Shown: in pieces, positions 6,825 to 32,147 of the stretch
Layout of the letters: each line of letters opens with the position of its first letter
How positions within the stretch are numbered: the first letter of the stretch is position 1
NCBI GenBank assembly: GCA_963662625.1
Contig: OY759726.1
Span: forward strand, 1,632,001-1,696,000
DNA length: 64,000 nucleotides
Reading direction: 5' to 3'
Source of the DNA: Nitrosopumilus sp.
Lineage (GTDB): Archaea; Thermoproteota; Nitrososphaeria; Nitrososphaerales; Nitrosopumilaceae
Notes under the pieces: generated by a model
What the model was told of the DNA's origin: nothing
The model's input: the letters and a program-made list of their open reading frames with translations, nothing else
The model's database searches: none
Program-made: the position numbers and the translations under genes

Positions 6825-6931
6825 GAGCCTCGAGGCTTGGCCAGCAGGCGCGCTCTTCCACATACAACCTCCCGCTTTCCGAGAGGGACTCGACGAGCCT
6901 CGAGGCTTGGCCAGCAGGCGCGCTCTTCCAC
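6825..6931. repeat. Perfect 37-bp direct repeat pair with 33-bp insert
   Basis: gagcctcgaggcttggccagcaggcgcgctcttccac at 6825-6861 and 6895-6931. Confidence 0.95.
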
Positions 6932-6982
6932 CCCGACCGCGCCGCGCGCAAGATTTTTCTTGGGCTGGGTGCGACATGGGGC

Positions 6983-7141
6983 ATGCTGTACCACTTTGAG
7001 CTGCAGATGGCCGGGGCGATCCTGTTTGCCGCCATGCTGGTGGGGGGCATAACCCTGTGGATAAGGCGCAGGCGGGCCCAGCGCGAACTCGACGCGCGGG
7101 ACGGGCCAGGCGCGCCCGGCGACGATCCCAGTAACGCCTGA
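6983..7141 (+). CDS. Small single-pass membrane protein (52 aa)
   Basis: MLYHFELQMAGAILFAAMLVGGITLW followed by RRRR (TM helix plus positive-inside). Confidence 0.5.
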   Translation: MLYHFELQMAGAILFAAMLVGGITLWIRRRRAQRELDARDGPGAPGDDPSNA

Positions 7142-7199
7142 TGCCAACGGCGCCAGCGGCTCCGTGCAATAGATAAAGCACCGTGACTGTACACGTAGT

Positions 7200-7760
7200 G
7201 TGTTGAGGCTAGTGGTCGGGATCACGGGCAGCACGGGCGCGGCGTACGGGATCCGCATGCTCGAGGTGCTCAGGGACATGGGGGTGGAGACCCACCTGGT
7301 AATGTCAGCGTGGGGCGCGAAGTGCATCGCCATGGAGACGGGGCGCGACGCGGACTATGCGCGGTCCCTGGCCACCGCGTCCTCCGACGACGGTAACATG
7401 GCGGCAAGCGTCTCCAGCGGGTCGCACAGGGTGGACGGGATGGTGGTGGTGCCATGCAGCATGAAGACCCTCTCCGCCATCGCAAACGGATACGACGACA
7501 CGCTCATAGCGCGCGCGGCGGGCGTCGCCATCAAGGAGTCCAGGAGGCTGGTCCTGGTGGCGCGGGAGACGCCGCTATCCGCGATCCACCTGGAAAACAT
7601 GCTGAAGCTGGCGCGGCTGGGGGTGGTGATACTCCCCCCGGTCACCGAGTTCTACACGTCGCCCAAGACCATCGGCGACATCATCGACCACTGCGTGGGC
7701 AAGTGCCTGGACCAGTTCGGCCTGGAGCACACTTTATACCCGAGGTGGGGATCCAGCTAA
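7200..7760 (+). CDS. ubiX: UbiX family flavin prenyltransferase
   Basis: VVGITGSTG, SSGS, PCSMKTL, RETPL..IHLENM motifs. Confidence 0.92.
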   Translation: MLRLVVGITGSTGAAYGIRMLEVLRDMGVETHLVMSAWGAKCIAMETGRDADYARSLATASSDDGNMAASVSSGSHRVDGMVVVPCSMKTLSAIANGYDDTLIARAAGVAIKESRRLVLVARETPLSAIHLENMLKLARLGVVILPPVTEFYTSPKTIGDIIDHCVGKCLDQFGLEHTLYPRWGSS

Positions 7761-7766
7761 GCTGCA

Positions 7767-8195
7767 TTGCCAAAGTTCTCCCTGGAAAAGATCGTGGGGG
7801 CCGGCGTCGAGAGGACGTTCGACGCCTTCGCCGACCCCCGGGGGCTGCAGGATGCGGCGCCGCGGCACTTCACCTCGGTCCGCGTGCTGTCTGCCAGGGG
7901 AGGCGTGTCGGTGGCAGAGGTGCACCTCGTCCTTGCCGGAAAGGAGCTAGTGATGATGACGAAGCACGTGGCCGACCGGCCCCGCACCCACGAGGTGTTC
8001 GTGATCGGCGGCAACGCGAAGGGCAGCCACATAGTGGAGAGGTACTCGCCGGCCGGGCAGGCCACCCGGGTCGAGGTAGACGCCGACCTGAGGCTGGACG
8101 CCGCGTCGAGGCTGGCCGGGCTCTTCGGCAGGGGCAGGGTCGTGGACGGCTATTCGGAGATCGTGGACGATCTTGCCGCGGCCGCGGAACGCTAG
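7767..8195 (+). CDS. SRPBCC/polyketide cyclase-like protein
   Basis: 142 aa directly after ubiX, START-like alternating pattern. Confidence 0.55.
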   Translation: MPKFSLEKIVGAGVERTFDAFADPRGLQDAAPRHFTSVRVLSARGGVSVAEVHLVLAGKELVMMTKHVADRPRTHEVFVIGGNAKGSHIVERYSPAGQATRVEVDADLRLDAASRLAGLFGRGRVVDGYSEIVDDLAAAAER

Positions 8196-8398
8196 CCCTG
8201 CTTTGTCTCCTTGTCCTTGAAGTCCTTCAGCTCTTTCTCGCCCTCTATCTTCCCCTTCTCGAACTCGCCCTTGGCCTTGCCGAACGTCTTTGCCAGCTCC
8301 GGGATCTTCTTCGCGCCGAAGATGAATATGACGGCGATGATTATGATGAATATCCACTCCTGGCCGGCTATAAATCCCGCAAAATCCATTCCGAACAT
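8192..8398 (-). CDS. tatA: Twin-arginine translocase TatA/E
   Basis: TM helix then FGAKKIPELAKTFGKAKGEF. Confidence 0.92.
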   Translation of the reverse strand: MFGMDFAGFIAGQEWIFIIIIAVIFIFGAKKIPELAKTFGKAKGEFEKGKIEGEKELKDFKDKETKQG

Positions 8399-8524
8399 TA
8401 CGCCTTTACTTTGCGGATTTTAGATTTAAGTGTTCAACATCGCCTCCACGGGCCCCCCCAGTGCGGAAACCTGCCCCCGGGCCAAGGCGGGCAGGCTCCG
8501 GCCGGCGCCGCAGCGGCCAGGCGC

Positions 8525-8752
8525 CTACCCGTCCCTGCGGTACGTCACCCTCGGGTTGTTCGACAGTATGAGGCCGATGACGATCGACATGAGGGAAAGG
8601 AGCGTCAGGACGAGGAACATCACGATCGTCCCGGCCAACTCGTGGTACTCCTCGAACACCTTCACCAGGAATATCATGGCGCTGCCAAGGGTGCAAAAAC
8701 CCGCCACGAGGAACCAGTACCTTCCTGGCATGGTAAACCGGAACAGCGGCAT
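8525..8752 (-). CDS. Small two-TM membrane protein
   Basis: Two hydrophobic segments; tttaaa TATA upstream. Confidence 0.55.
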   Translation of the reverse strand: MPLFRFTMPGRYWFLVAGFCTLGSAMIFLVKVFEEYHELAGTIVMFLVLTLLSLMSIVIGLILSNNPRVTYRRDG

Positions 8753-8891
8753 TGGGAATGCTTGATCCGTGCATTTTAAATACATTTGACCCGCCGTGGG
8801 CCCGGATCCGGGGCCCGCCCGCGGTCGGGGGCGCCCTCCTCCCCGGCTAGCCGCCCCGGGATCCCGCGGACGCCGGCGGCGCCCCGCCGGG

Positions 8892-9674
8892 CTACGATCT
8901 GCGGTCCTTGCGCTCGATGGCCACCATGCCTGCCACGTACAGCGCTATCATGGGCCCGGCGATGAACCACATCGTGACGCCGCTCCCGTCTGGCGTGATC
9001 ACCGCGCCGAATACCACGATGGCGATCACCGCGTACCTGATGTTCCTCCTCCAGAACCCCGCGCCTGCCATGCCTGACTGCGTCACCGCGTACATGGCCA
9101 GCGGCAGCTGGAACGACAGCCCGAACGCCAGCAGGAACTGGAGGACGAACGTGACAAAGTCCATCACGTTGAGGAACGTGACCAGGCCGGCGGACTCTCC
9201 GTACCTGTACAGGAACTCCAGCACGTAGGGGATTATCAGGCTGTACGAGAAGGCGCACCCCGCGGCAAAGAGCCCGAGCGCCGGGAGCGTTATGGACCGG
9301 CCCGCGTGGATCTCGTTCTCCTTGAGCGCGGGCCTTATGAAGCCGACGAACTCCCTGACCATGACCGGCATGCCTGCCAGTATCCCCACCAGCGCCGCGA
9401 TGTACACCTGCGCGAAGAACGCCTGCCCGGGGGCCGTCTGGATCATCTGGACGTTTTCCGGGACCAGGCTCTGCCGCATGTGGTCGGTTATCTGCGCCGC
9501 CATGTTGTCAAGCGGCTCCGGGACGGGGTAGTACAGGGTGAACTGGTCCACCTGGACCGGCTCGGCGTGGAACGTCAGCAGGAACACAGTCACCGCCCCG
9601 ATCACGATCACCATGCGCAGGATCCTCCTCCTGAGCTCGTTCAGGTGGGCGTAAATCTCCTGGAACTCCGACAT
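8892..9674 (-). CDS. tatC: Twin-arginine translocase TatC
   Basis: HLNELRRR, FIRPAL..NE, FQLP and ITPD motifs. Confidence 0.93.
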   Translation of the reverse strand: MSEFQEIYAHLNELRRRILRMVIVIGAVTVFLLTFHAEPVQVDQFTLYYPVPEPLDNMAAQITDHMRQSLVPENVQMIQTAPGQAFFAQVYIAALVGILAGMPVMVREFVGFIRPALKENEIHAGRSITLPALGLFAAGCAFSYSLIIPYVLEFLYRYGESAGLVTFLNVMDFVTFVLQFLLAFGLSFQLPLAMYAVTQSGMAGAGFWRRNIRYAVIAIVVFGAVITPDGSGVTMWFIAGPMIALYVAGMVAIERKDRRS

Positions 9675-9704
9675 CTGGACTCCCTACCGCGAACTGCCTC
9701 TTAT

Positions 9705-10169
9705 CTATTTGCCGGGAATCGGGAGCAGCTTCGACTCGGGGAGCCCGGCCTCCTTCAGCTCCTCGTGGCCGGGGCCGTCGAACTCGAGCGACATCACCGC
9801 CTTCACGTTGAACTCCCCCTCCAGCGCCGCGGCCAGCTCCGCCAGCTCCGCGCCGGAGTACACCTCCCTGGAGCCCCTCAGGAACACCCTCTCCCCCTTC
9901 TCCATCGGCTTCCCGCCGTACCTGTCGTGGAGGAACTTCGTGATCGCGGGCAGCTCGCCCCTCGGGATGTTGTTGTGGAAATAGGTGATGCCCTTCACCG
10001 ACTCGTAGTCAAACGGCGTGCCGTTCCTGTAGAGGAACACCCCTATGAAGATCGCCTCGGATTCGGGCTCCCTGACGCACTTGATCTCCCAGTTCAGCAG
10101 GCTGGCCTCGTCGTACGAGAAGCCGCCTGCCTCCTCGGGGGTGATCTTCCAGTACCTTGACCTTGCCAA
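9705..10169 (-). CDS. Hypothetical protein
   Basis: Protein-like composition from TTG 10169 (MARSRYWKITPEE); tttataa upstream. Confidence 0.65.
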   Translation of the reverse strand: MARSRYWKITPEEAGGFSYDEASLLNWEIKCVREPESEAIFIGVFLYRNGTPFDYESVKGITYFHNNIPRGELPAITKFLHDRYGGKPMEKGERVFLRGSREVYSGAELAELAAALEGEFNVKAVMSLEFDGPGHEELKEAGLPESKLLPIPGK

Positions 10170-10343
10170 CGCGTAGGATCCGGGCCTCCTGTTATAAATT
10201 CCAATGCGCCGCGGCGCGCTCGGGCCGCGGCGGGGCGGGACGGGGCACACGCGCCCTCCAGCGGGCGGGCCCAGCCGCGGAAGGGCCCGCCGCCATCCTT
10301 ATTTTCATACCATCTTTTTATATGAAAAACACGCATACCGTCC

Positions 10344-10499
10344 ATGGCTATTCGCACGACCATAATGCTTGATCCGGCGCTCTCCGAGAAGCTCAGGGCG
10401 GTGCAGGCGAAGATGATAAGGTCCTCGTCGGGCTCGGTCAGCTTCTCCCGCGTGGTGAACCTGGTGATCGCCGAGGGCATCAAGAGATACCGGCCCTGA
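10344..10499 (+). CDS. Small ribbon-helix-helix-like DNA-binding protein (51 aa; not in ORF track)
   Basis: MAIRTTIMLDPALSEKLRAVQAKMIRSSSGSVSFSRVVNLVIAEGIKRYRP; ttttata about 25 bp upstream. Confidence 0.7.
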   Translation: MAIRTTIMLDPALSEKLRAVQAKMIRSSSGSVSFSRVVNLVIAEGIKRYRP

Positions 10500-10679
10500 G
10501 CGGCCCGGATCCGGCGCCCCGCCGCCCCTGCCCGGCGCGGCCGGGACGGCCCGAGCGGCCGCGGAGCTGCAAGCGGGCCCGCAGCTGCGCCCGCGCGCGG
10601 CCATGGCAGCCGGGCGGCCCGGGAATGTCGGCCAGGTACATCATCAGGTCCAGGGCACATGGCAGCCACTCCTGGGTAG

Positions 10680-11120
10680 TCAACACGGGTGATGCGGTGG
10701 GCTGACGCCGTCCCGACCAGCCTGGCCCCTCATGCGGCAGCGGCAGGGGGCGCAAGCACTGCAGGCGGCCCGGGCAGGGCGGGTACTGCAGGCGGCCACC
10801 GGGCCGCGCGGCTCCGGGAGCGGGCCCGGCGCGCCAGGCACGCCGTTCCCCGTGCCGTCATGGCTCACGAGCGAGAACGGCATGTCGCGCGCCCTCCCGA
10901 ACATGTCCCACTTCCTGTCCAGCAGGTGCCCCGGGAGCGCCCTGGCGGGGGACAGGCCATGCCTGTTGCAGGTGCGCGTGACCGCGGGCAGCACCGACAG
11001 CGTGTCCCTGCCCTCCAGGGCCACCGTCTTGTGCCGCGCGTTGCGCTGCGACATTGCCACGTCGCGCATCTCGCGCTTGGTGTTGTTGTTGTGTGGAGGC
11101 ATGCCCGCGAGCATCCCCAC
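10680..11120 (-). pseudogene. IS66-family transposase C-terminal remnant
   Basis: GMPPHNNNTKREMRD resembles the IS66 NN..ER..R motif; downstream sequence is GC-eroded. Confidence 0.55.
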
Positions 11121-11167
11121 CAGCGCCGGAAGGTAGATTAACGGCGGCCGGGACTTGCAACCTGTAC

Positions 11168-11425
11168 ATGGGAACGTACCGCGTCCACGTCGTAATAGAG
11201 AACAAGCCGGGAATGAGGGATCCTGAGGGCGAGACGATCCTCAACGACCTCGTGGTCAAGGCCGGGGCCGCCGGCGTGTCGGAGATACGGGCGGCCAAGA
11301 TGCTGAAGTTTACCGTGGACGGGGACGGCGAGGGGGACGCCGTGGAGAAGGTGCGCGGCATATGCGACGAGCTGAGGATCTACAACCCGCTCGTGAGCCG
11401 GGTGACGGTCACGGTCCCGGGCTAG
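11168..11425 (+). CDS. purS: Phosphoribosylformylglycinamidine synthase subunit PurS
   Basis: KPGMRDPEGETI and IYNPLV motifs. Confidence 0.92.
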   Translation: MGTYRVHVVIENKPGMRDPEGETILNDLVVKAGAAGVSEIRAAKMLKFTVDGDGEGDAVEKVRGICDELRIYNPLVSRVTVTVPG

Positions 11426-11838
11426 CCCTTTGCCGCCCTTTCCACCGTGCCGTCTATGAGGAGCCTGCTGCGCAGGAACTCCGTCAGGTCGGTCTGGGTT
11501 ATGATCCCCGCCATCTTCTTGCCATCAAGCACGAGGAGCCGCCTGACGTTGCCGTTGAGCATCTTCCGGACAGCCTCCTCCACCGTGCTGTCCGGGGCGA
11601 CCCACTTGAACCTCCTGGTCATGATGCTGCCCAGCCTGACCTTCCCTGGAACCCTGTTCTTCGCCACGATCTTGTGGACAAAGTCCCTCTCGGTCACCAG
11701 CCCGACGGGCTCGGAGTCGCTGGTCACCACCAGGAAGCTGATCTTCCTCTCCTTGAGCACGGCCGCCGCGTCAAGCGCGGTCTTGTCGTCTCCTATGCTC
11801 ACGACGTCCCTCACCATGATGTCGCGGACGTGTGCCAT
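11422..11838 (-). CDS. CBS domain pair protein
   Basis: VRDIM, GLVTERD, GIITQTD. Confidence 0.88.
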   Translation of the reverse strand: MAHVRDIMVRDVVSIGDDKTALDAAAVLKERKISFLVVTSDSEPVGLVTERDFVHKIVAKNRVPGKVRLGSIMTRRFKWVAPDSTVEEAVRKMLNGNVRRLLVLDGKKMAGIITQTDLTEFLRSRLLIDGTVERAAKG

Positions 11839-12329
11839 GCCTACCGGCGGCCCCGCTCGCCTTAAATTTTTTTGGTTGGAAGTAGCGTACGCCATCAGGC
11901 GCAGCTCAGGCAAATTTACGCAAATAACCCACAAGCCTAGATCGCTACGCATTGATCCTGCCCCTCCCAAGCCACCACATGGCGGATTCCGAGGCTACGG
12001 TTCTGCGCAGGGAGCTTGCAAGGGGCGTTGCCCAGTATTCAATTGTGCGGAAAGCCGGTCCGCGCCGGATCAGGAGGACGGCGGCCGGCCATTTTGGGCC
12101 GTGCCGGCCACGGAAGGCCATGACAGGGAGACCTGCCGGGGGGTTCCTGGAGTGCCCGGCCAGGCGGCGAGAGAAGGGCGTGCCGGCCGCCAGGGTGGCG
12201 GCGGGCCCCGGAACCGCCGCAAGGCACGTGCGGGGGCCGTGGGCGAGGTTCCTGGAGGCAGGAACGACATGGGCGGGGACCCTCCCGGGTTCCGGAAGCC
12301 CACCGCGTCCGGGGCGGGGCCCCTGGACC

Positions 12330-13665
12330 CAGTACTTGAAAATGTACTAGCCGGCAGACGCCTGGTTGGGCCAGGCCCGGCCGCCATACGCCGCGCACGC
12401 GGCCAGCCTCGCCATGTACTCCAGCATGACCGCCAGCCGGACCGGGGCGGTGTCGCGCCTCCCGTACCACCCGGCGGACCATTCCGCCGACATCATCCAC
12501 GGGTCGTGCATGACCAGCGCCATGAAGAACATGAACGTCCTGACTGAGGGGTTCGTGCTGGTGGTCCTGGGCCTGGCCTTCTCGGCGTCCCCGTGCCCCG
12601 TCCCTGTCCCCCACCTCTTCCTGTACTCGTCGGGGACGTCGGCGGCTCGGACCGCCCTGCCGGCGCCGGCGTTGGTGGCGTACGCCAGGTGCCCCTCCTG
12701 CGCGTCCCCCGGGCCCCGCCCGTCCTCGCCCTCCTTCGGGACCATCGCCAGGGCGGACGGCTCCCTGGCCCTCCCGTCCCGGGGCGCCGGGCGTGCGGGG
12801 ACGCCGCATCCCTCTCCCCGCGCGCGTGCTCCCCCACGGCCCCCTTCGCCCCGGCCGTCCGCGACGCGGGCATGACGAGCCCGTGGCCCGGCCCGGACAG
12901 CTCCCCGACGGCCCCTGCCGAGAAGAAGCCCCGGCCCGGCAGGACCGGCCCCGGGCGGACGCCCGCGCCAGTGCAGTCACGCAGCAGTTCACGCACGGTC
13001 TCGGCCCCCGTGCTCCCCTTCTTGGGCCCGCGCGCCGGGTCCGGCCCCGGCCCGTCCACCATCTGGGCGGTGGCGTACCCCTCGAAGCGCGACGTCCCGT
13101 TCCCGTGCCTCGCGCGCACCAGCTGCTCCCCCCCGGTGGCGGGGTTCCTGCCGTGCCTGGGCATCGGGCGGCAGGCCGGGGCCACGGCGTGGGACGCCCC
13201 CCCCACGATGATCCCGGCGCGACGGGCCCCGCGCACCGTGGAGCTCAGGGCGTCCCTGCACCTGCCCTCCATGGTGCCGGGATCCCGGCACGCCCCCCCT
13301 ATCCTGGACAGGAACCACGCCGACGACGGCACGCGGCGGGGCCCGTGGCGCACGGCGAGCGCCCCGGTGGCGCCCGACGCGCACGAGCGGTTCCCGCACG
13401 CCGGTACCGGCACGCGCACGGGGCCGGCCATGCCGCACGCGGCGTCGTGCCGGCCCGAGAACCTGATGCCCGCCTTCCCAAGCAGCCGTGGCAACGTTTT
13501 AAACGCCTTGCCCACCACCTCAAGCCGGCGCCCCCGTGGTTCGTTTTGGTGGTACACGATGGATGACAGGGGCGCCTGATCCATTGGTTTTTCTGTCCAA
13601 AACGTTCACGGATCGTGTCAAAACATGCTGGCCGGTGCCCCGCGGGGGTACATTTTCAACTACTG
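12330..13665 (-). mobile_element. ISH3-family (IS4-like) element, degenerate and frameshifted copy
   Basis: TIR cagta.ttgaaaatgtac, 5-bp TSD ggacc on both sides, transposase paralogous to 13716-14954. Confidence 0.85.
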
Positions 13666-13698
13666 GGACCGGGGCGCCGGGCCCATGAACCCCAGGCC

Positions 13699-15035
13699 CA
13701 GTAGATCGAAATGTACTAGCCGCCAGACGACTGGTTGGGCCACGCCCGGCAGCCATCCGTCCCGCCCGCAGCCATCCCCACCATGCACTCCAGCATGACC
13801 GCCAGCCGGATCGAGGCGGTGTCGCGGCTCCCGTACCACCCGGCGGACCATTCCACCGACATCATCCACAGGTTGTACATCACCAGCGCCATGAAGAACA
13901 GGAACGTCCTGACCGAGGCGTCCGGGCTGGTGGTCCTGGGCCTGGCCTTCTCGGCGTCCCTGTACCCGGTCTCTATCCCCCACCTCTTCCGGTACTCGTC
14001 AGGGACGTCGGCGGCGCGCACCGCCCTGCCGGCGTCCGCGTTGGTGGCGTACGCCAGGTACCTCTCCTGCGCGTCCCCCGAGTCCCACCCGTCCTCGCCC
14101 TCCTTCTTCGGGACTATCACCAGGGTGAACGGCTCGCTGGCCTTCCTGTCCTGGGGCGTCAGGGCGTGCGGGGACACCGCGGCCCTCTCCCCGCGGGCGT
14201 GCTCCCCCACGGCCCTCTTTATCCCGGCAGTCCGCGACGCGGGCATGATGAACCTGTGGCCCGACCCGGACAGCTCCCCGACGACCCCTGCCGAGAAGAA
14301 TCCCCGGTCCAGCAGGACCAGCCTGGGGCGGACGCCCACGCCAGCGCAGTCACGCAGCAGCTCGCGCACGATTCCGGCCCCCGTGCTCCCCCCCTTGGGC
14401 CTGCACGCCAGGTTCAGCCCCGGCCCGTCCACCATCTGGGCGGTGGCGTACCCCTCGAAGCGCGACGTCCCGGACCTGTGCCTCGCGCGCACCAGCTGCT
14501 CCTCCCTGGTCGCGGGATCCCTGTCGTACCTGGGTATCAGGTGGTAGTCCAGGGCCACGACGCAGCGGATCCGCCTGAGGATCCTCGACCGCCCGGCATC
14601 CCGCACGGTGGATGCGAGGGCGCCGGCGCACCGCTCCCGCATGGCGTCCGGTTCGGGGCACGCCCCCCGTATCCTGGAGAGCACCCACGCCGACGACGGC
14701 ACGCGGCGGGGCCCGTGGCGCACGGCGAGCGTCCCGGTGGCGCCAGACGCGCACGCGCGGTCCCTGCACATGGACACCAGAACGCGCACGAAGTCGGCCA
14801 TGCCGTACACGGCGTTGTGCCGGCCCGAGAACCCGATGCCCGCCCTCTCCAGCAGCCCGGGCAACATTTTAAACGCCTTGCCGGCCACCCTGAGTCGGTG
14901 CCCCTGCGGTTCGTTTTGGTTGTACATGACGGATGACAGGGGCGCCTGATCCATTGGTTTTTCTGTCCAAAACGTTCCAGTGCCAGGTCAATACATGCTG
15001 GCCAACGCCCCACAGGGGTACATTTCGATCTACTG
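13699..15035 (-). mobile_element. ISH3-family (IS4-like) element with full-length transposase ORF 13716-14954
   Basis: TIR cagtagatcgaaatgtac, 5-bp TSD aggcc, DDE motifs ALDYH, LLDRGFF, YRKRWGIETGYR. Confidence 0.88.
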
Positions 15036-15256
15036 AGGCCGCACCGCCCCCGGGCCAACGGGAAGGCCGGGAGGCCCTTCCGGGGCGCGGGGGACGGGAC
15101 ACGGCGCCACGGGGGCATGCCCGGGCACGCCGGGCACTGCAACGGGGACAGGCTGCACCTCTCCCCGGGCACCGGCAACTGCCAGACCCCGCTGAGGGCC
15201 TTCCACGACAGGGAGGCCGCGGACGCGATCAGGAAAGGCGACCCCAAGCGGGTGGA

Positions 15257-15364
15257 GGCGGGCACGGCTGGCTGGCGGACCGACTTTTCATACCGTACCG
15301 TGCGGCATGGGCAAAAACCGGCAGGGCGGCGGGCACGGATGGCTGGCGGACCGACTTTTCATAC
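15257..15364. repeat. 37-bp direct repeat pair (1 mismatch) with 34-bp insert inside the IS481 right end
   Basis: 15257-15293 and 15328-15364; this segment is single-copy in the IS at 42241. Confidence 0.92.
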
Positions 15365-15420
15365 ACTACAAGCAGGCTAACTAGATCGATGCCTTTTTAA
15401 CCCCCCCCCCATGGTATCGC

Positions 15421-16860
15421 ATGGCAATCGTAGCGTTGTCCGTGCTGTTGGTGGCCGCGTGCGTAGTGGCCGCAGGCTGCCTTGACGTGGCATATGGCTC
15501 GGCTTTTACCCCCGGCTCGTTCGTGACCACCTGGAAGACAGCATACCCCAACGAGACCATAACAATTCCGGTCGGCGGTGCCACCGGCAGCTATACGGTG
15601 GACTGGGGGGACGGCAGCACCACCACACAGGCGGGGAATGCTACGCACACGTACGCGGCGGCCGGCACCTACACCGTCCAGATATCGGGCGACTTTACCA
15701 GGATCTTCCTGGCCAGCGACAGCACCAACGCGGCTAAGATGCGCTCCATAGAGCAGTGGGGATCCACCCAGTGGGATACGATGGAAAGCGCGTTCCGTTA
15801 CGCGCAAAACATGGAATACCGCGCAACGGACGCCCCCAACCTGTCCGGCGTGGCCGACATGGGATCCATGTTCCTTGGGGCCTACGAGTTTACCGGAGAC
15901 CCCTCGTCCTGGGACGTCTCGTCTGTCACCGACATGTCCAACATGTTCCGCAACGCCTTTGCCTTCAACGGCAACGTGTCGTCCTGGGACGTCTCGTCTG
16001 TCACCGACATGTCCGGCATGTTCGTCAACGCCAGGTCCTTCAACCAGCCCATCGGCGCCTGGAACACCTCCAAGGTCACCGACATGTCCGCCATGTTCGT
16101 CAACGCCACGTCCTTCAACCAGCCCCTCAACTCCTGGGACGTCTCCAAGGTCACCGACATGTACAGCATGTTCTGGAAGGCGTCGTCCTTCAACCAGCCC
16201 CTCAACTCCTGGGACGTCTCGGGCGTGATCAACATGTCCAGCATGTTCCAGAACGCCACCTCCTTCAACCAGCCCCTCTCCTCCTGGAACGTCTCAAGCG
16301 TAGAAGATATGTCCTACATGTTCCACAACGCCACGTCCTTCAACCGGCCCCTCGCCTCCTGGGAAGTCTCGCGCCTGGACAACGCGTCCGGGATGTTCTT
16401 CCAAGCCACCTCCTTCAACCAGCCCCTCAACTCCTGGTACATCTCTTCACTCAGAAACGTGAACCACATGTTTGAGAAGGCGTCGTCCTTCAACCAGCCC
16501 CTCGACAACTGGAACGTGTCGAGGATAGACGGCATGAAGGACATGCTGTTCGCCACACCCTTCGCCCAGAACCTCGCGCCCTGGTACATAATACCGGAAG
16601 ACACCGAGGTGGAGCCGGGCCAGGCGGTGGTCACGACCATCTCCGCCCAGAACTCCTACATCGGCAACCGCGCCTCGTACACGCTGGCACCAGAGGACGA
16701 CTATTCCCATTTCACCATAAGCGGCCACCTCCTAAAGTCGATCTCCCCCAGCTACGCAAAGGAGACGTACGACATCACCATCCTGGCCAAGGACGTGCTC
16801 GGCCTGCCAGAGGGGGTGTTCCACCCGATGGAAATTACCATCACCGTAACGCAGCCCTGA
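15421..16860 (+). CDS. Secreted DUF285/BspA-like surface repeat protein
   Basis: Signal peptide, VDWGDG, about ten 25-aa repeats FNQPLNSWDVS.VTDM..MF. Confidence 0.9.
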   Translation: MAIVALSVLLVAACVVAAGCLDVAYGSAFTPGSFVTTWKTAYPNETITIPVGGATGSYTVDWGDGSTTTQAGNATHTYAAAGTYTVQISGDFTRIFLASDSTNAAKMRSIEQWGSTQWDTMESAFRYAQNMEYRATDAPNLSGVADMGSMFLGAYEFTGDPSSWDVSSVTDMSNMFRNAFAFNGNVSSWDVSSVTDMSGMFVNARSFNQPIGAWNTSKVTDMSAMFVNATSFNQPLNSWDVSKVTDMYSMFWKASSFNQPLNSWDVSGVINMSSMFQNATSFNQPLSSWNVSSVEDMSYMFHNATSFNRPLASWEVSRLDNASGMFFQATSFNQPLNSWYISSLRNVNHMFEKASSFNQPLDNWNVSRIDGMKDMLFATPFAQNLAPWYIIPEDTEVEPGQAVVTTISAQNSYIGNRASYTLAPEDDYSHFTISGHLLKSISPSYAKETYDITILAKDVLGLPEGVFHPMEITITVTQP

Positions 16861-23110: not shown

Positions 23111-23166
23111 CCCGGATGGTGGCCTCCCGCCGCGCGAGGCCGCGCCCGACTCGAATTCCCCGTCTA

Positions 23167-23370
23167 GCCGTCCCCGCAGCCGTCCCCGCAGCCGTCCCCG
23201 CAGCCGTACCCGCAGCCGTCCCCGCAGCCGTCCCCGCAGCCGTCCCCGCAGCCGTACCCGCAGCCGTACCCGCAGCCGTACCCGCAGCCGTACCCGCGGG
23301 GGTGCCCACTGCCCCGGCACCCCCGGCACCCCCGGCACCCCCGGCACCCCCGGCACCCCCGGCACCCCCG
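23167..23370. repeat. Two adjacent VNTRs: 12-mer gccgt(c/a)cccgca x ~11 and 9-mer ccccggcac x ~6
   Basis: Directly visible tandem units. Confidence 0.95.
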
Positions 23371-23665
23371 GAAATCCCCTGGCCCTTTTTGCACTACGAC
23401 TTTCCCCGTCCCGGTACGGGACGCACCATACCGCGACTGCCAGGGCCGTGGCGCTACCGGCAACGTACAGCCGCTACGTGATCACTGCCGCCGCCGCGGA
23501 ATCCCTGCCGCCGCTACCGGGTACGCGGTGACGACACGGCGGCCCCCGCAGCGGGACGGCCAGGCGGCCGCCGGTACCGGAACGGCGGTAGCGGAAAAAA
23601 ATTGATGCGTTTGGACAAAAAAATATGATGTTGCAGATCTTTTACCCACGGCGGGAGTCCCACGC

Positions 23666-24187: not shown

Positions 24188-24212
24188 GTAGAGACGCGCC
24201 GTATGCACTGGC

Positions 24213-24530
24213 ATGGCGAGGGTCTTTTACGGCCAAAAGACGGAGCAGCTCGTGGAAAAGGTGCTGCTGGCGGGCTGGCGCCGGCGCGTAAGCGGCGAGC
24301 TGACCCGGGATCACCAGGACATGTCCGACAACTGGAAGATGTGCGCGATCGGGGAGCGCGTCATGCTGGAGGGAAGGGACATGGAGTCGGTCAGGGACCT
24401 GTCCCCCGAGGCGATCAAGCTCGGGTACGACTTCTCCGTGGCGCTGCAGGAGCGCGACAACGAGAGGGCGCTTGAGATCATAGCGGGAATCGAGGGGCTC
24501 CCGACGATCTGGAGGGACGGCCATGGATGA
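24213..24530 (+). CDS. Hypothetical protein
   Basis: Protein-like ORF with host-type codon usage, overlapping the start of the next gene. Confidence 0.65.
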   Translation: MARVFYGQKTEQLVEKVLLAGWRRRVSGELTRDHQDMSDNWKMCAIGERVMLEGRDMESVRDLSPEAIKLGYDFSVALQERDNERALEIIAGIEGLPTIWRDGHG

Positions 24531-24930
24531 AAAGGCAGAGCGGTTGTTCCGTGGAAGGAACCTGGTCTTCGTGGCCACGCTGATGGGGGACGGCGCCCCG
24601 CAGGTGTCGCCGGTGTGGGCAAGCTTTGAGGGGGGCCACATACTGGTCAACACGGCCGAGGGGAGGATCAAGCACAAGAACGTCCTGCGCGACCCCCGGG
24701 TCGCGGTGTCGGTGGTCTCAAGCGAGAACCCCCTCGACATGACGACGATACGCGGCGTGGTGGTGGAACTGGTCCCGGACTATGACTACGCCCATGCAGA
24801 CAAGCTGACACGGCAGTACATGGGCCGCGAGCGCTACCCGTTCAGGCGCGAGGGGGAGAAAAGGGTGATCCTGAAGATAAGGCCCGACCGCGTCTTCGTG
24901 CTGCCGGAACTGAAGATGGACCCGGAATGA
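24523..24930 (+). CDS. PPOX-class F420-dependent oxidoreductase
   Basis: ATLMGDGAPQVSPVW, K.KNVLRDPRVAVSV. Confidence 0.88.
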   Translation: MDEKAERLFRGRNLVFVATLMGDGAPQVSPVWASFEGGHILVNTAEGRIKHKNVLRDPRVAVSVVSSENPLDMTTIRGVVVELVPDYDYAHADKLTRQYMGRERYPFRREGEKRVILKIRPDRVFVLPELKMDPE

Positions 24931-24982
24931 GGGGCCCGGGATCCCTGGGAAACGTGGTGAAATAAAAAAAGGGCGGGGCAGC

Positions 24983-25669
24983 CTAGCGGCGCCTGGCTGC
25001 CCTTTTGGTCGTAGCTTTCCTGGTTGCCGTTCTAGCCGTAGCTTTCCTGGTTGCCGTTCTAGCCGTAGCTTTCCTGGTTGCCGTTCTAGCCGTAGCTTTC
25101 CTGGTTGCCGTTCTAGCCGTAGCTTTCCTGGTTGCCGTTCTAGCCGTAGCTTTCCTGGTTGCCGTTCTAGCCGTAGCTTTCCTGGTTGCCGTTCTAGCCG
25201 TAGCTTTCCTGGTTGCCGTTCTAGCCGTAGCTTTTCTAGCAGTGGCTTTCCTCGTCGTAGCTTTCCTGGTTGCCGTTCTAGCCGTAGCTTTCCTGGTTGC
25301 CGTTCTAGCCGTAGCTTTCCTGGTTGCCGTTCTAGCCGTAGCTTTCCTGGTTGCCGTTCTAGCCGTAGCTTTCCTGGTTGCCGTTCTAGCCGTAGCTTTC
25401 CTGGTTGCCGTTCTAGCCGTAGCTTTCCTGGTTGCCGTTCTAGCCGTAGCTTTCCTGGTTGCCGTTCTAGCCGTAGCTTTCCTGGTTGCCGTTCTAGCCG
25501 TAGCTTTTCTGGTTGCCGTTCTAGCCGTAGCTTTTCTAGCAGTGGCTTTCCTCGCCGTAGCTTTCCTGGTTGCCGTTCTAGCCGTAGCTTTTCTAGCAGT
25601 GGCTTTCCTCGCCGTAGCTTTCCTGGTTGCCGTTCTAGCCGTAGCTTTCTTGGCTTTAGCTGTTGCCAT
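24983..25669 (-). CDS. Histone H1/Hc2-like basic repeat protein (ATARTATRK)n
   Basis: About 20 near-perfect 27-bp repeats; ATG with upstream tttaa box; T-tract after the stop. Confidence 0.75.
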   Translation of the reverse strand: MATAKAKKATARTATRKATARKATARKATARTATRKATARKATARKATARTATRKATARTATRKATARTATRKATARTATRKATARTATRKATARTATRKATARTATRKATARTATRKATARTATRKATARTATRKATTRKATARKATARTATRKATARTATRKATARTATRKATARTATRKATARTATRKATARTATRKATARTATRKATARTATRKATTKRAARRR

Positions 25670-25771
25670 GGTTTTTTTCCCTTCTCATACCGGTTATATG
25701 GTTAAAGTCATACATAATTGTGCAAGCAATAATAAAATTTGACAATATTTTCAAAAAAACCGCCCGCGCGA

Positions 25772-26257
25772 TCAACAATTTGCAATGCAGATCCTTGCAG
25801 TGTCAACGCTCGACTGCTGTTTTGTCGGCCTGATCACAACCTTGTACTGCGCTTCCTCGTCGTACGGCACGTCGAACTGGGTGGTCCAGCTTACCGGCTT
25901 GCCGGGTTCCAGGACGTCGTCCAGCAGGTCCGTAGCCGTGAACTCCCCGTAGACTGCCCTGTGGTTCTGGTTCTTCTCGTCAACAAGGTAGAACTGCCCG
26001 CCGGACATCCGCGTCTTTTCGCCGCTTATGTTTTCCGCGTCGATCTTGATCCTGACAAAAGTGTTTGCGGGGGACTTCTCCTTGTTCCCCATGTGCGTCC
26101 CGTCAAAGAACACCGAGTACTGCACGGGGCCGACCGTTACCGGCTCCCCCTCTGCAACCTCCACGAAGTTCGTCTGGTACTGGGTGTACATGTACATGGC
26201 TGCTGCCATCGACGCTATCACTGCGGCAATCACAACCACCGCGCCAATCCCTGCCAT
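25772..26257 (-). CDS. DUF4352-like membrane-anchored protein
   Basis: N-terminal TM, FYLVD, LEPGK...FDVP pattern. Confidence 0.7.
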   Translation of the reverse strand: MAGIGAVVVIAAVIASMAAAMYMYTQYQTNFVEVAEGEPVTVGPVQYSVFFDGTHMGNKEKSPANTFVRIKIDAENISGEKTRMSGGQFYLVDEKNQNHRAVYGEFTATDLLDDVLEPGKPVSWTTQFDVPYDEEAQYKVVIRPTKQQSSVDTARICIANC

Positions 26258-27800
26258 GCATGCCGTGGGGCAGTTTGGTATATAGTTGCAACGCACGTCC
26301 CGGCCATCCAGTGCCGGGCGCGGGAAGGCAGCCCGGGTGTGAAAAAACTATCTTTCTATATTCGAATTTTGAAACATGGTGCCCGTGCAACGCGGCGGAG
26401 CGCACGCGCGCCTGGCACGCGTAACCGTGTACGCCCATCCAGGGTGCCTGCGGCTGGCGCCGCAAAGTGATCGTCCCCCAGTGGCCTTTCCAGCACTTTT
26501 CGCAGAAAAACAGGCCGTCACCGTCCCGCGCGCGCCTGGCACGTGCCGCCCGAATTCCCACTGCACTTGGAGGACGCGCGTCACGCCATGTTGTCTTCTG
26601 CCGGCCCCCTTGCAGGTTTTTTGACGGTGCGCCGTCGCGGCATTCGTTGTGCACCGGCATGCCAGGCCCGGAGTGGCCCCAAAGCCGCGGTCGCGGGAGA
26701 ACCACAGCCCGTTCCCCGTGGCGCCTTGCGCCTTGATGCCACTCCGCGGCAGCCATGCACACAAAGGCGTCGCCGCTTTCATGGTCGGCTTTGTGGCCAA
26801 TGCCGTCGGCGCGCAGGTGGCCCGGGAGTCCGCGGCATTCATGCCACACAACCCTCGGAAGGGGGCCGAGCTTCTCAAGCGTGGACGATCCGTCAGTCCC
26901 GGCGCACGTCCAGCCCTCGCTGCAGGATCCAGCTCTCGGCGCGATCTCCCAGTGTCTCCCCCGGATCCTCCGGGACGCGCCCCTTGAGGTGCCTGGGCAT
27001 CATTCCCGCCGAGGGCACCGCCTTGCAGTCTGCACGCGTCCCGTCTGCCCCTGGTGCCGTACGCGTGGTGGCTGCTTGCTCCCAAATCCGCGCCACGGTT
27101 GGGCGAAGCTCCCGGGATCGCGGGACGTCGATGCCCCATGCGGCCGATCGCAGGCGATCAACGCAAGCCAGATGACCGGATTGCATGCAGTGCGCGCATG
27201 CGGCGGATGCATTTGCGGGATGCCTCGTACGGCGCCCGTCACGCGATAACGAGGCTCGAGCGCGACGCGTCGAGCATGCTGGTTTGCGGGACGTCCGGGA
27301 CGGCACCCGTCCCACGGCAGGCATGCGGCTGCGCACTCGCCGCGCGCGGACGTGCGGGGGCAGGCGTCCGACCGCACGCGTTTTTCACAAGCCGCACCGG
27401 CGCGGCGTGACTCTGGCCGGATCGCCGGATTGGCGACAGCCCGTGACCAAGCGCTCCCGCGGTACGGGGGATGCCGCATTGCGGGATCCGTGCAACTGCG
27501 CACGGGCTGCCTGCCGCGCGGGCCGGAGGGGCCGCGGCTTGCCGGATGCTGGTACGGGTCCTGCCGGGGTGGGCCCGCCGGACGCCGACCAGGAAACCCC
27601 GGCGCCTTACGGCACGCTCCGGGCGCGGTCCTGCCCGTGGCGCGGGGATGGGTGCAGGGTGGCGGGAACACCCGCGCCGGGCACGGCGTCCCCGGCCGGA
27701 ACGTGCGCGCGGCCATTTTCTGGCCGGCCGGGAAGTGGCACGTTTGGGCGGCCCGGCCTGCCATGAAAACGCGTTTTCCAGCACCCGGCGGGGCCTCCGA

Positions 27801-27982
27801 GGGGGGTTTAGCTTTCGTGCCTGACATGGAATGATCACGGGGATCAATCTGTTCCACCGGGGTCTTTTGCCGGTTGCCCCGCGGAATCAGGCACGGGAGC
27901 TAAACCCCCCGCCGAAACCGCGTTTTTCGCGGGGATGTCATCGTGCGCGAACCGGGGGGGCCCGGAGGGGGGTTTAGCTCCC
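27801..27982. repeat. GGGGGGTTTAGCT motif x3, including a 24-bp inverted pair
   Basis: 27801-27824 vs 27887-27910 inverted (22/24); third copy at 27967. Confidence 0.8.
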
Positions 27983-28493
27983 AGGCACGAAACCCGGAAG
28001 CCGGCCTCCGGGGGCCGCCGGGGCATGGCCGCGGCCCGCCCTGCCGCCGGCGGGCCCCGCGGGCGCCAGGGCACGGGCGCGCGGCGCCCGGCGCGCACTT
28101 TGGGCGAAGAACCCCCCCTTTTTTTTGCCCAAAGGCGCGGCCATAAGGCCGTGCACCCCAGCGAAAAAGGCCGCCGTGGCGCCGGTCCGCTTCCCCGGGG
28201 CATTCTTGTGTGCGTGCCGCCCGGCTTGGGCGCGCGGTGCGCCTGCCTCGCGCCGTGCGGCCTGGCACGCGTGGGAACCGCGGCCCGCGTCCTGAACGGC
28301 CATGTTTCTAAACCCGAGTTTTGAAACATGTGCCATGCATCCTGCCGGCACTGCAGCCCATCCCGGACCATGATGTTTCCATATTCGAATTTAGAAACAT
28401 GCTATGTCGCGTCGGGCGGTCCCCCTTGACCGCGCGGCCACCGCGCCCCGGCTTTTCGGCACCCTTTTCCGGGCCGCCTGGCAGCGTGGGTGC

Positions 28494-28629
28494 CGTAGTC
28501 AACGCCTTATGAAATCGCTCAACAATGAGCCGCCAAAACACGCATTGTGGGTGAATCCACGCCCACCACCGTACTCAAAAAGGAACCCATTACGCCCAAA
28601 ATGAACGGATAGATGATACGTTGACTACG
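28494..28629. mobile_element. MITE-like 136-bp element
   Basis: Perfect 11-bp TIR cgtagtcaacg/cgttgactacg around an AT-richer core; no clear TSD. Confidence 0.4.
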
Positions 28630-29200
28630 TTGCACCGGAACGGGCCGCGCCAGGTCTCCGCGCCAGGGGCACGATTTGATTTCTGGCCTTCTTGAATGAC
28701 TTTAACACAAAATATTTGCTCGGGTCTCCACGCATGACGAGATATCTTTTTGGGACAGGATCTGACCTCCATGACACGTTGTGGGACACAATCCGGCCAT
28801 TCTGATCCTTAATCCCTGCCACTTTTGCATGTCTGGACTGCGGTGCAATCCCTTCACAGCGTTCCGTTGCCATGGATGCCGGAATGGCAGTATGATGGCC
28901 ATGCCTGGAATGGCCGCGGCGACGTCGGCGCGGCTCGCGTGACCAGTGCCATAGGGCCGTCCCCGGAACGGTGTCCCAGGAACCGGATCCGGCACGTTTG
29001 CCATCATTGTTTCTAAACTCGAATTTAGGAATATTCTAAAACAACCGTATGGAGACATGCGTGGTTCGCGTAGCTGCCGTGCCGCTTTTGCCGTTCTGTG
29101 CCCCTGTTTGGATGGACAGGGCTTTTGGGCTGTCAGCATGCATAACGTGCCATAGTTACCTCCTGACTCGGTGCCTCGTTCTGGCTGTCACTGCTGCTTA

Positions 29201-29274
29201 TTTCGCACATTTGCGACTCGCACCCATGGTTTCGCACATTTGCGACTCGCACCCATGGTTTCGCACATTTGCGA
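29201..29274. repeat. 29-bp tandem repeat x2.5 carrying the palindrome TCGCA-CATT-TGCGA, upstream of the ATPase TATA box
   Basis: tttcgcacatttgcgactcgcacccatgg repeated; ttataa at 29279. Confidence 0.85.
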
Positions 29275-29307
29275 AAAATTATAAGTGTTCCTGACTGTAT
29301 TAAGGAT

Positions 29308-30471
29308 ATGTAAAAAAACCCATTCTCGTTTGGAACAGTTGTCCGCGGCCAGAACTTTGCGGATCGAAAGGAAGAATTTCGTGAATTGACAGCGGATTTA
29401 CAAAGTGGGACTAACATCATTATGTTTTCTCCACGGAGATATGGAAAAACCTCCTTGATGGCTAAGATCATAGGCCACTTGAGGACCAAGGGGATAATAT
29501 GCGTGTATGCAGATCTTTACGCCGTTACCAATAAGACAAAGTTTGCAAACGTTCTGGCATTATCCATTGCAAAGGCAAAAGCAGGCAAGATTGACGAGAT
29601 AATGCAAATCATACGGAACCACATCCCGCCTGTAAAGCTGGTCATCCGGCCCGGTGATGATTTGGGCCTTAACAGCGGGCTTGAGCTGGAGCTGTCCCAA
29701 GGCAAAACCGACATTGACGCCACCCTGGCACGACTGTATGATCTCCCCGAAAAAATCGCAAAAAAGAAAAAAAAGAAGATGGTTGTGGTGTTTGACGAAT
29801 TTCAGGAAATCTCAAAACTTGACGGTGGCCAGATCGAGGTTGAAATGCGCTCAAAAATCCAACAGCACGAGAGTGTGTCGTACGTGTTCATGGGCAGCCA
29901 ACACCATCTCGTGGCTAAGATGTTTGCAGGCGCAAACCGCCCCCTGTACCATGTGGGGAAACTGTTCGATCTGGGCAGGATCAGCGAAATCGATTTTGCG
30001 GAATTCATCCAAACGCGGTTCAAATCTTGCGGAGTGGAGATATCGAACCAGGCGATATCCCGCATCCTTGAATTGACTCTGTGCCATCCGTACTATACCC
30101 AGCAGCTCTGCCATGAGGTGTGGGTGGCGTGCATCTCAAAAAAATCACGCCGTGCTGAGACAGGCTATGTTGAAGACGCCAAGGAGCAGCTGATGAAAAA
30201 CCAAGACTATGCCTATGCGGCCATGTGGGACTCTGTCAGTGACAGACAGCGGTCGATACTTGTCGCCATGGCCACATCCGGAGGGGGCGGGATCTTTTCA
30301 CACGGTTTCAGGGAGGCTTACAGCTTGGGGCCCTCATCCACCGTTGCAAGGGCAGTAAGATCCCTGGAGGGCAGGGGCTTGGTAGAAAAATCAGGCAAAA
30401 GGTACGCCGTCTCGGATGCGTTTTTCGCGGAGTGGCTACGGCGGCTTGGCCACGGCGGCGCCAGCGCATAG
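29308..30471 (+). pseudogene. Archaeal AAA/STAND-type ATPase with C-terminal wHTH; TAA at codon 2 (open frame from 29386)
   Basis: ATG TAA then KNPFSFG..V.G..FADRKEE in frame; Walker A SPRRYGKT, Walker B VVFDEFQ. Confidence 0.7.
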
Positions 30472-30967
30472 CTTCGGCCCCGGCGGCGGTCGGGTGGAAC
30501 GCGCGCCGGGCTGCGGCCGGACGTGCGCCCCGTGAGTGCCCGGCCACAGCCGTCGCGTCCTGCGCATATTCATATTCCGCCCGGCCGGGCAGGCAACATG
30601 GCGGACGTGCCGTGCCTGGCCCCTCTGCCGCATCCAGACCAGATTCATCCCAGGTGCGTGTGAGGAAAACTGCCTGGCACTATGCCGCCGAACACTCCCA
30701 GAACCCCTATCGCCTTCCAGGGATTGTGGGCCCTTGCGTCGTGGGCGAGCATCAAACACTTCCCGCGGGGTGTCCGGGGAAGCCCACGAGGCTGCGGTTG
30801 TTTTCCTTTTCGCAGTGCCGGCAACCTGGCATGCCCCAGCACAGAACCCAGAACGGGCCGGACCCGCCCGAATGACCGTGACCATGCAGTTTCAATCTTT
30901 GTTGTATTAGAATTTCTTTCGAACTATGGTTGGCTTTACGCCATAATGAACTTTCGGGGCTTGGCTT

Positions 30968-31672
30968 TTATGGGTCGAGTCTGTCCAGCTGGTACCCGGC
31001 GTATTCCACGCACCATTTTGCGTCACGGGACGAATAATCCGCCACCACCAGGTTAATGCACTTGTTCTTTGCCTGCTCTTCACCCATGGATTTTGCCCAT
31101 TCCGGCTCGTAGCCGTCGGAATCGCAGAACAGCGCGCATTGGGACGCGGTGGCCACCTCTCCCAGAAGCGCGACTGCCGCGTCTAGTGCCCCGAGTATGA
31201 CCCCCGCCAGCGTTTTCCCCGAATCGTTTATGCACCCAGCCGCGACGAGCTCGGCGGTGGACTGACGCATGGAGTTCTCATAGCCACGGGAAAACGGCTC
31301 TACCGCATGCAGTCTTTCCGGGTATTGTGATATGGTGAATATGGTACCGACATACGCGAAGTTGTCGCGGGCCCACTCCTCCACCAGGTCGTGGCACGTC
31401 GGTTCCGGTTCCGGCGGCGCAGGCACCTCGATGATCCCGGCACCGGCCAGCCACGTCAACGTGGCGGCGTACTCCGCGTCCGAGATCGACCCCTCAGCCC
31501 AGAACCCGGCCACTCCCTTTACCCAGCCCGGTATGCCGTCGGCGTGTACGTCTGCGGGTATGGAAAAAAGCGCCAGGATGACCAGGCCAAGGCCGAGACC
31601 AATGCCCAAGATGGCTCTGGTCTTTTCGGCATGGCCTCCACGGCGTGGAAGACGTTCCTCATTCGTATCCAT
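30968..31672 (-). CDS. Secreted protein with thaumarchaeal IPxWxKxxAxFW motif
   Basis: Signal/TM segment, IPGWVKGVAGFWAEGSISDAEY, Cys-containing C-terminus. Confidence 0.75.
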   Translation of the reverse strand: MDTNEERLPRRGGHAEKTRAILGIGLGLGLVILALFSIPADVHADGIPGWVKGVAGFWAEGSISDAEYAATLTWLAGAGIIEVPAPPEPEPTCHDLVEEWARDNFAYVGTIFTISQYPERLHAVEPFSRGYENSMRQSTAELVAAGCINDSGKTLAGVILGALDAAVALLGEVATASQCALFCDSDGYEPEWAKSMGEEQAKNKCINLVVADYSSRDAKWCVEYAGYQLDRLDP

Positions 31673-32036
31673 GTGTGGACTGGGTTGTTTAGTTTAAATG
31701 CTTTTTGATTTGGTTCACCCTTTCCATTATCTTTCAGATGCGCAGGTGGTATAGGACTCACCGCCTCCAGCATGACTGGTATAAGGATGGTTTTCTAGTA
31801 AACCCGAATCTTGGACGGCGTCTATTACGGTACCCGGATATTGCGACATCCCTAGAAGGCACGTTTTAGTGGTGCCGGTGGTAGAGGGGAGCGGGAGGTG
31901 CGACTTTGCACTTGGAAAGGCTGGGCTTTGCCGTGGCAACGCGGGACGGATCATTCTTCGCCCACGGCCCGGATCCGGACTGTGCTGGTCCCACTGGGTG
32001 GTTGGCTCGTAACTGGGTGTGACGGGAATCGCGACA

Positions 32037-32147
32037 GGGTGACGGTGCGCGAGGCCATGCCCACGGATTGCCGTCCCGCGTCGTCCGACGTGTACCTGCC
32101 CCGCCCGGCGGGTGACGGTGCGCGAGGCCATGCCCACGGATTGCCGT
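32037..32147. repeat. Perfect 38-bp direct repeat pair with 35-bp insert
   Basis: gggtgacggtgcgcgaggccatgcccacggattgccgt at 32037-32074 and 32110-32147. Confidence 0.95.

Follow-up and report, generated by a model that had tools for sequence, protein, structure and literature searches.

The closest described counterpart of the structures analysed here is the neo-CRISPR, the product of non-canonical spacer integration that Nivala, Shipman and Church reportedly obtained in 2018 with the type I-E system of Escherichia coli. Here, we analysed a stretch of 64,000 nucleotides (hereafter the window) from the archaeon Nitrosopumilus sp. (contig OY759726.1; G000:C1:1632001-1696000) together with the genome to which it belongs (G000), which consists of one contig of 1,858,698 bp with 63.4% GC, and found short repeat-insert-repeat units dispersed over ordinary chromosomal DNA. 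It is very likely that these units are scars of off-target spacer integration by the resident type I-G Cas4/Cas1 and Cas2. As in the E. coli neo-CRISPRs, a spacer-length insert lies between repeat-length duplications of non-CRISPR DNA, and sites appear to be expandable again into small arrays. On the other hand, the E. coli work reportedly used laboratory over-production of Cas1-Cas2 and supplied oligonucleotides, whereas the present units are natural, archaeal and associated with a type I-G system that has a Cas4/Cas1 fusion. They amount to about 30 putative scars with identified donors and empty sites, and no leader-like or repeat-like motif marks their targets.

Off-target integration as such is already documented for engineered E. 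coli and in vitro, and its natural occurrence rested, as far as the accessible parts of the literature go, on circumstantial cases. IHF-like motifs favoured off-target sites in E. coli (PMC9456107, in its accessible part), and the available portions of papers citing the 2018 work report natural evidence that is circumstantial and comes from two other species (10.1101/148544, PMC7054753). Full-site integration at non-CRISPR sites, with two attack points one repeat length apart, similar to the arrangement proposed here, was obtained in vitro with Cas1-Cas2 of Pyrococcus furiosus; the accessible part of that report (PMC6698737) describes plasmids, a 30-bp repeat and preferred sites that keep a positional likeness to the repeat, whereas the present units are genomic scars with a spacing of about 36 bp. 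For type I-G, described adaptation complexes are those of the PDB 7mi4 family and that of Methanosarcina barkeri, and the Cas4/Cas1 fusion studied here is a full-length homologue (end-to-end alignment with 7mi4, E 6.5e-164). Studies of this type report integration into supplied CRISPR targets, and the term 'off-target' is absent from the text of PMC10504553. In the M. barkeri assay, integration hit the correct site in 80-90% of cases on the leader side but in only 60-70% on the spacer side (PMC10504553), so that a degree of looseness is intrinsic.

Casposons are kilobase-sized, carry terminal inverted repeats and generate duplications of about 14-15 bp. Their casposase is similar in being a Cas1-family integrase that makes target-site duplications, but the genome studied here has no second Cas1, and the inserts are of about 35 bp and lack common ends. 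The stand-alone units of Shmakov et al. of 2020 are said to lie at targets resembling the cognate repeat, with few cases per genome. Off-target acquisition is given as the origin of some stand-alone repeat-spacer units in the part of PMC13142298 that summarises this work (Shmakov et al., 2020). A natural genome-wide survey of such scars was not found in our literature search, and the papers of 2018 and 2020 with their supplements may list natural cases; likewise, we found no precedent in the literature for natural off-target integration at this scale.

An exact-seed scan of the genome for isolated direct repeats gave 4, 3, 7, 10 and 2 pairs at periods of 70, 71, 72, 73 and 74, respectively, and just 8 pairs at all other periods between 27 and 140. 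A sharp genome-wide peak of this kind had been predicted by a first-pass annotation of the window, and it was indeed found at periods 69-74 with almost nothing elsewhere. With a mismatch-tolerant scan (at least 28 of 34 matches), 42 pairs were detected outside the array at periods 69-74. Twelve of these were dropped before counting, i.e. eight DUF285 protein repeats of period 72 (family confirmed by Pfam) and four weak pairs (genome 437896, 749143, 997159 and 1445302), which left 30 confident units; in 18 of these the repeats, 34-39 nt long, are perfect. At a threshold of at least 25/34, isolated pairs at periods 70, 71, 73 and 74 numbered 5, 7, 14 and 5, compared with 5 pairs altogether at the remaining periods in the range 50-100, of which about 30 were considered after leaving aside multiples of 3, and about seven more diverged candidates appeared in low-coding DNA. 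The number of units is far above chance, and their ages vary, with repeat mismatches from 0 up to 8-9 of 34.

Three of the units, named A, B and C, belong to the window and lie where the first-pass annotation had placed them, with the repeats, inserts and periods that it had given (Table 1). In unit A, identical 37-mers enclose a 33-nt insert (period 70), and another 4 nt to its left and 2 nt to its right could belong either to the insert or to the target. The 37-mers of unit B (34-nt insert, period 71) differ by one mismatch, and a repeat search of the window could extend this pair to 45 nt at 91% identity, while the 38-mers of unit C (35-nt insert, period 73) show no mismatch. An older candidate of period 71 at 27212 had also been proposed; this one, located in low-coding DNA, escaped the window repeat search and was recovered only at a lower match threshold (26/34, 27212-27245 vs 27283-27316), among the diverged candidates mentioned above, and it is weak evidence by itself. 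Two repeats were present at 28 loci and three at one locus, where two different inserts are separated at periods of 72 and 71 (genome 463590-463770); this locus supports integration, as a re-use of one integration site. The identification of the loci as bona fide CRISPR arrays was considered and rejected, given these repeat numbers and the lack of relationship between their repeats and the cas-associated repeat.

The geometry of the units resembles that of the resident array, for which the first reading of the window had given a period of 36 plus about 34-40 bp. Indeed, a 36-nt repeat occurs 135 times in the array and the spacers measure 34-40 nt (mode 36-37), with periods of 70-76 and a mean of 72.6, compared with a mean unit period of 72.0. 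In the 18 units with perfect repeats, the duplication has an apparent length of 34-39 bp (mean 36.9, against the 36-bp CRISPR repeat), and we calculate that a duplication of 36 bp, lengthened by chance identities at its ends, is expected to give about 36.8. Of the 12 units whose insert is delimited by a donor, 9 allow a duplication of exactly 36 bp. Inserts of well-delimited units are 31-38 nt long, similar to the spacers of the array; they match neither one another nor any array spacer. Between the flanks of the donors and the ends of the targets, the number of shared bases is higher than expected by chance: 3 of 18 junctions (9 units) have 4 nt in common, against about 0.15 expected, although this is a post-hoc observation. 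Such microhomology may come from a variable ruler length or from base-pairing during off-target capture.

The array is preceded by cas2 and by a 554-aa cas4/cas1 fusion, whose product is the only Cas1 of the genome (sole PF01867 hit). The fusion is intact and full-length, and its cysteine cluster and D..E.K stretch are aligned with 7mi4. The system is of type I-G: the cas4/cas1 fusion, cas3g, cas7g (csb1), csb2 and cas8g (csx17) all exceed the NCBIfam type I-G cut-offs, and cas2 was assigned by Pfam PF09827 and not by an NCBIfam type I-G model. From the geometry of the units and the presence of a sole Cas1, we infer that this Cas4/Cas1 is their writer.

A second copy of the insert was identified elsewhere in the genome for 12 of the 30 units (28-37 nt, 89-100% identity). 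The insert of unit A is identical over 33/33 nt to genome 1512149-1512181, inside a 414-aa open reading frame (ORF), and that of unit C matches genome 1753649-1753615 at 34/35 nt, inside a 345-aa ORF. The suggestion that inserts resemble coding fragments holds in substance, as most donors belong to ORFs whose codon use is coding-like; among the donor sites are orc1/cdc6, an 1103-aa ORF and a multi-copy insertion sequence (IS). The latter, which has at least six copies in the genome, provided the insert of genome unit 1046936, and four of its copies match that insert at 35/35 nt. No second copy in the genome and no exact match in viral_contigs were obtained for the insert of unit B. Parts of one array spacer and of the insert of genome unit 94384 also lacked an exact match in viral_contigs, and in metagenome_contigs none was obtained for portions of two more inserts (genome units 1481869 and 457709). 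These scans covered 4 insert stretches and 1 array-spacer stretch by exact matching, so that diverged protospacers would be missed. Thus, the proposal that the inserts are mainly a record of invader DNA did not stand: at least 12 of 30 (at least 40%) are self-derived, self DNA dominates among the identified sources, and the 4 insert stretches gave no match in the viral or metagenome collections, the last being a weak result of exact-match scans.

In contrast with the 12 of 30 scars, only 2 of the 134 array spacers have a self match. One of them (Table 1) matches genome 837999-838035, and the other (window 61522-61559) matches genome 1799688-1799725, both perfectly; neither protospacer has TTN on either side. 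The rarity of self spacers in the array and their frequency in the scars would fit an escape of the scars from autoimmune selection. A region of 28 kb (816.8-843.6 kb) contains four of the 12 donors as well as the protospacer of the first of these array spacers, and it holds the only orc1/cdc6 of the genome (Pfam; sole Cdc6_C hit). This suggests a capture hot spot at a probable replication origin, a label that rests on the sole orc1/cdc6 gene; GC skew located no origin. With respect to the protospacer adjacent motif (PAM), TTN has reportedly been found for the type I-G system of Geobacter sulfurreducens, and TTN is the PAM to be expected for type I-G. The PAM strand of M. barkeri reads GAA (PMC10504553).

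To see the units against related genomes, we considered G008, a complete genome of the same family in which neither a protein search nor a Pfam model detected Cas1. In the 1.60 of 1.65 Mb scanned there was no perfect unit. At 28/34 or more, 8 pairs with periods of 72-73 were found, consisting of three DUF285 repeats, one three-copy tandem, one low-complexity pair and three diverged candidates, the last being either chance pairs or relics of a lost system. Hence the peak is absent from this relative in which Cas1 was not found, as had been anticipated, albeit with one control genome. G016 (38% GC) encodes an ortholog of Cas4/Cas1 (63% identity), its repeat differs at two positions, and one perfect unit was identified in 0.8 Mb scanned (37 + 35 nt, period 72), whose insert has no donor within G016. 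No unit was found in the 124 kb of G002 that were scanned, which is too little to judge.

These comparisons bear on the possibility that an earlier or different CRISPR-Cas system of similar geometry, since lost or replaced, wrote the scars. In its favour, the units differ in age (0 up to 8-9 of 34 positions mismatched), and the three diverged pairs of period 72/73 in the Cas1-lacking G008 could be relics. Moreover, type I-G looks horizontally shared: the repeat of G016 (C1:1716653 onward) and G002 (C3:48352), genomes of 38-47% GC, is nearly identical to that of the present 63% GC genome, suggesting that the system moved horizontally or is unusually conserved. However, the 18 perfect units and several 100% identical donors point to many recent events, the present array fits in both repeat and spacer length, and no second Cas1 exists in the genome. 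We therefore regard a former system as an improbable source, although among the rival explanations it is the one that may still account for the older scars.

Even less probable is an unknown mobile element or integrase, not related to CRISPR, that inserts fragments of about 35 bp with duplications of about 36 bp. In favour of such an element, the link to Cas1 is indirect, the genome is rich in IS copies, and an IS481-family transposase is located in the cas locus itself. However, known transposases give far shorter duplications, and the inserts, which copy arbitrary segments of the chromosome, have neither ends nor sequence in common. The match to the repeat and spacer lengths of the array would also have to be a coincidence, and perfect units are missing from G008, where Cas1 was not found.

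Evidence on the ancestral state came from the genome itself. Nine of the 30 units belong to multi-copy families in which other copies carry the left flank, the target and the right flank once. Clean gaps were observed against four paralogs each for units 395288 (70 bp), 396382 (74 bp), 1578421 (72 bp) and 457709 (73 bp), and against one paralog each for 1020047 (72 bp) and 1479016 (73 bp); units 348484 and 480580 and unit B of the window have a consistent structure with less clean gaps. For unit B, the paralogs at genome 392225, 1248137, 3306 and 14849 carry a single target directly followed by the sequence found 3' of the second copy in unit B. Such paralogs act as natural empty sites and, together with the donors, show that the insertion came with a duplication of the target. 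A partial tandem duplication by slippage, giving about 1.5 copies of a roughly 72-bp unit, could produce direct repeats around a unique middle in single cases. However, it predicts a broad spread of periods instead of the peak at 69-74, and a middle segment that is ancestral, whereas 12 inserts copy distant loci and the paralogs have neither insert nor second repeat. With donors elsewhere and empty paralogs, partial tandem duplication is therefore excluded for practical purposes, and the inserts are not ancestral local sequence.

An assembly or sequencing artefact, for which a single contig of unknown assembly history might speak, is hardly credible, given that in two public runs the contigs end precisely where three units have their duplicated segments and that diverged older units with mutated repeats show an evolutionary history. 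Both runs come from the same study, possibly from the source sample. Three runs of one study contain the stretch concerned (L016) as Logan contigs, and the contigs stop at its duplicated segments (8704|8757, 9045|9097 and |11950), as expected if the reads contain repeats of at least 31 nt. In the same stretch, L016:10300-11950 (genome 1480300-1481950, next to unit 1481869) contains many variant letters and reaches a contig depth of up to about 300 in runs X1-X3, and it looks like a multi-copy or hypervariable region. In all, the core claim of the first-pass annotation, namely that Cas1-Cas2-type integration wrote spacer-length inserts with repeat-length target duplications into ordinary DNA, is supported by the period peak, the control genome G008, the donors and the empty sites.

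The duplicated targets are unlike each other (0/30 cross-matches, except for two units of one shared locus), and their likeness to the CRISPR repeat is that of chance (mean best identity 14.0/36 vs 13.9 for random sites); that they would be unrelated to one another and to the repeat had been noted before. Site choice by repeat likeness was thus rejected, and in this respect the units differ from the P. furiosus targets, with which they share only a preference for G/C at the ends. Unit flanks showed no significant likeness to the leader (z 0.8-1.3). Hairpin propensity was rejected as a basis for site choice as well (mean z -0.06 vs GC-matched non-coding controls, n=29). Targets are GC-rich (69% vs 58% for non-coding 36-mers), and at the 5' end of the duplication, counted on either strand, the base is G in 35/60 and C in 19/60 cases. 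According to the accessible part of PMC6698737, the base attacked off-target by P. furiosus Cas1-Cas2 in vitro was also most often G and then C. By a home-made codon-usage score of coding potential, at least one flank is of low coding potential in 27/34 pairs (41% of random sites), and both flanks are coding-like in 7/34 (55% of random sites).

Taking these features together, scar formation by Cas4/Cas1 and Cas2 could proceed as follows. A prespacer of about 33-38 bp would be processed and captured, often from the cell's own chromosome, and both of its 3' ends would attack the two strands of a GC-rich ordinary site about 36 bp apart. This distance would correspond to a repeat-length ruler of the complex, with G as the preferentially attacked base, and the choice of the site would involve no detectable resemblance to the CRISPR repeat or to the leader. 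Gap repair would then leave the 36-bp target duplicated on both sides of the insert. Scars would persist mostly in non-coding or repetitive DNA, where little harm is done, and self-derived spacers would be tolerated there, presumably because they are not made into CRISPR RNA (crRNA).

Several observations weigh against off-target integration by the resident system. In three of the 12 units delimited by a donor, the implied duplication is not 36 bp long but 33-34, about 38 and 38-42 bp, 18 of the 30 inserts are without an identified source, and TTN adjoins the protospacer in just 3 of 12 donors (plus one ambiguous case), a weak enrichment. No repeat-like, leader-like or hairpin feature explains the choice of sites. 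The three diverged pairs of G008 (C1:197459, 229547 and 715440; 29-31/34, periods 72-73) occur in a genome in which Cas1 was not found. The density of units in G016 is more than 10 times lower despite a similar system, so that having the system is not by itself enough to account for the number observed here. Same-genus genomes share 65-70% DNA identity in coding parts only, so that intergenic empty sites of sister strains cannot be aligned, and the k-mer graph of the public-run contigs is identical with or without an empty allele, which neither shows nor excludes polymorphism. Finally, the connection between enzyme and scars is inferred and does not come from biochemical or population evidence.

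Beyond the origin of the scars, we would give even chances to a wider reading, in which they form a natural record of capture and integration that is unfiltered by autoimmunity and in which four propositions hold jointly. First, about half of naive captures would be self DNA (12/30 scars vs 2/134 array spacers). Second, capture would have a hot spot around the sole orc1/cdc6, the probable replication origin. Third, most mis-integrated prespacers would lack a PAM and have ends with excess microhomology to the target. Fourth, new arrays would be in the course of being seeded, as at the one locus with three repeats. The integrase of this lineage would then be unusually relaxed in its choice of targets, and for every four to five array spacers roughly one off-target event would have been retained.

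The scars identify a process inserting 70-74 bp as a source of mutation in this genome. About 30 natural events with donors and empty sites make the fidelity of integration in vivo countable, as well as self-DNA capture before selection in the array, the origins of prespacers on an archaeal chromosome and the de novo birth of arrays. The paralogous empty sites could be used directly as biochemical substrates.

Table 1. Coordinates of the units, the CRISPR-Cas locus and associated features in the window
Feature	Position	Strand	Remarks
Unit A, target copy 1	6825..6861		37 nt, identical to 6895-6931
Unit A, insert	6862..6894		33 nt, copy of own chromosome
Unit A, target copy 2	6895..6931		flank on the left side of low coding potential
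Unit B, target copy 1	15257..15293		37 nt; target at end of a multi-copy sequence family
Unit B, insert	15294..15327		34 nt; without second copy in genome
Unit B, target copy 2	15328..15364		target single-copy in four paralogs
Older diverged candidate unit	27212..27316		period 71; flanks of low coding potential
Unit C, target copy 1	32037..32074		38 nt, identical to 32110-32147
Unit C, insert	32075..32109		35 nt, copied from own chromosome
Unit C, target copy 2	32110..32147		both flanks of low coding potential
Two type I-G effector modules	34424..51803	-	NCBIfam type I-G models
IS copy, donor family of the insert of genome unit 1046936	43110..43141	-	32/35 nt match
CRISPR array	51977..61742	-	135 repeats, 134 spacers
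Array spacer with perfect self match	60138..60174	-	genome 837999-838035 (donor hot spot)
Probable leader	61743..61917	-	between cas2 and first repeat; by position only
cas2	61918..62205	-	95 aa; PF09827, E 2.9e-17
cas4g/cas1g fusion, proposed integrase	62210..63874	-	554 aa; NF049935, E 8e-219

With regard to the CRISPR-Cas locus itself, the array repeat as read from the sequence on the - strand ends in ATTGAAGC, which we take to be the usual ending of type I repeats and hence to fix the direction of transcription. The gene order of the effector modules is cas7g, csb2, cas3g and cas8g1/csx17, followed by cas7g, csb2, cas3g and Cas3-extension, with cas8g1/csx17 only in the array-proximal module; between the two modules are the IS481-family transposase gene (42265-43200) and a 294-aa ORF (40878-41762). 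At the leader-distal end of the array lies a perfect hairpin with 24-bp arms (51874-51925), followed by a 12-nt remnant (to 51937) that is 11/12 identical to the repeat end.

The window also contains repeats of other kinds. A protein with DUF285 and PKD domains is encoded at 15421-16860 and has 75-nt (25-aa) repeats, and the DUF285 family accounts for a large genome-wide signal at period 75, which is also observed in G008. Tandem repeats were identified at 24992-25653 (27 nt x 24 copies), at 23166-23371 (12 nt x 11 copies beside 9 nt x 6.7 copies) and at 29201-29274, the last being a perfect repeat of 29 nt x 2.6 copies.

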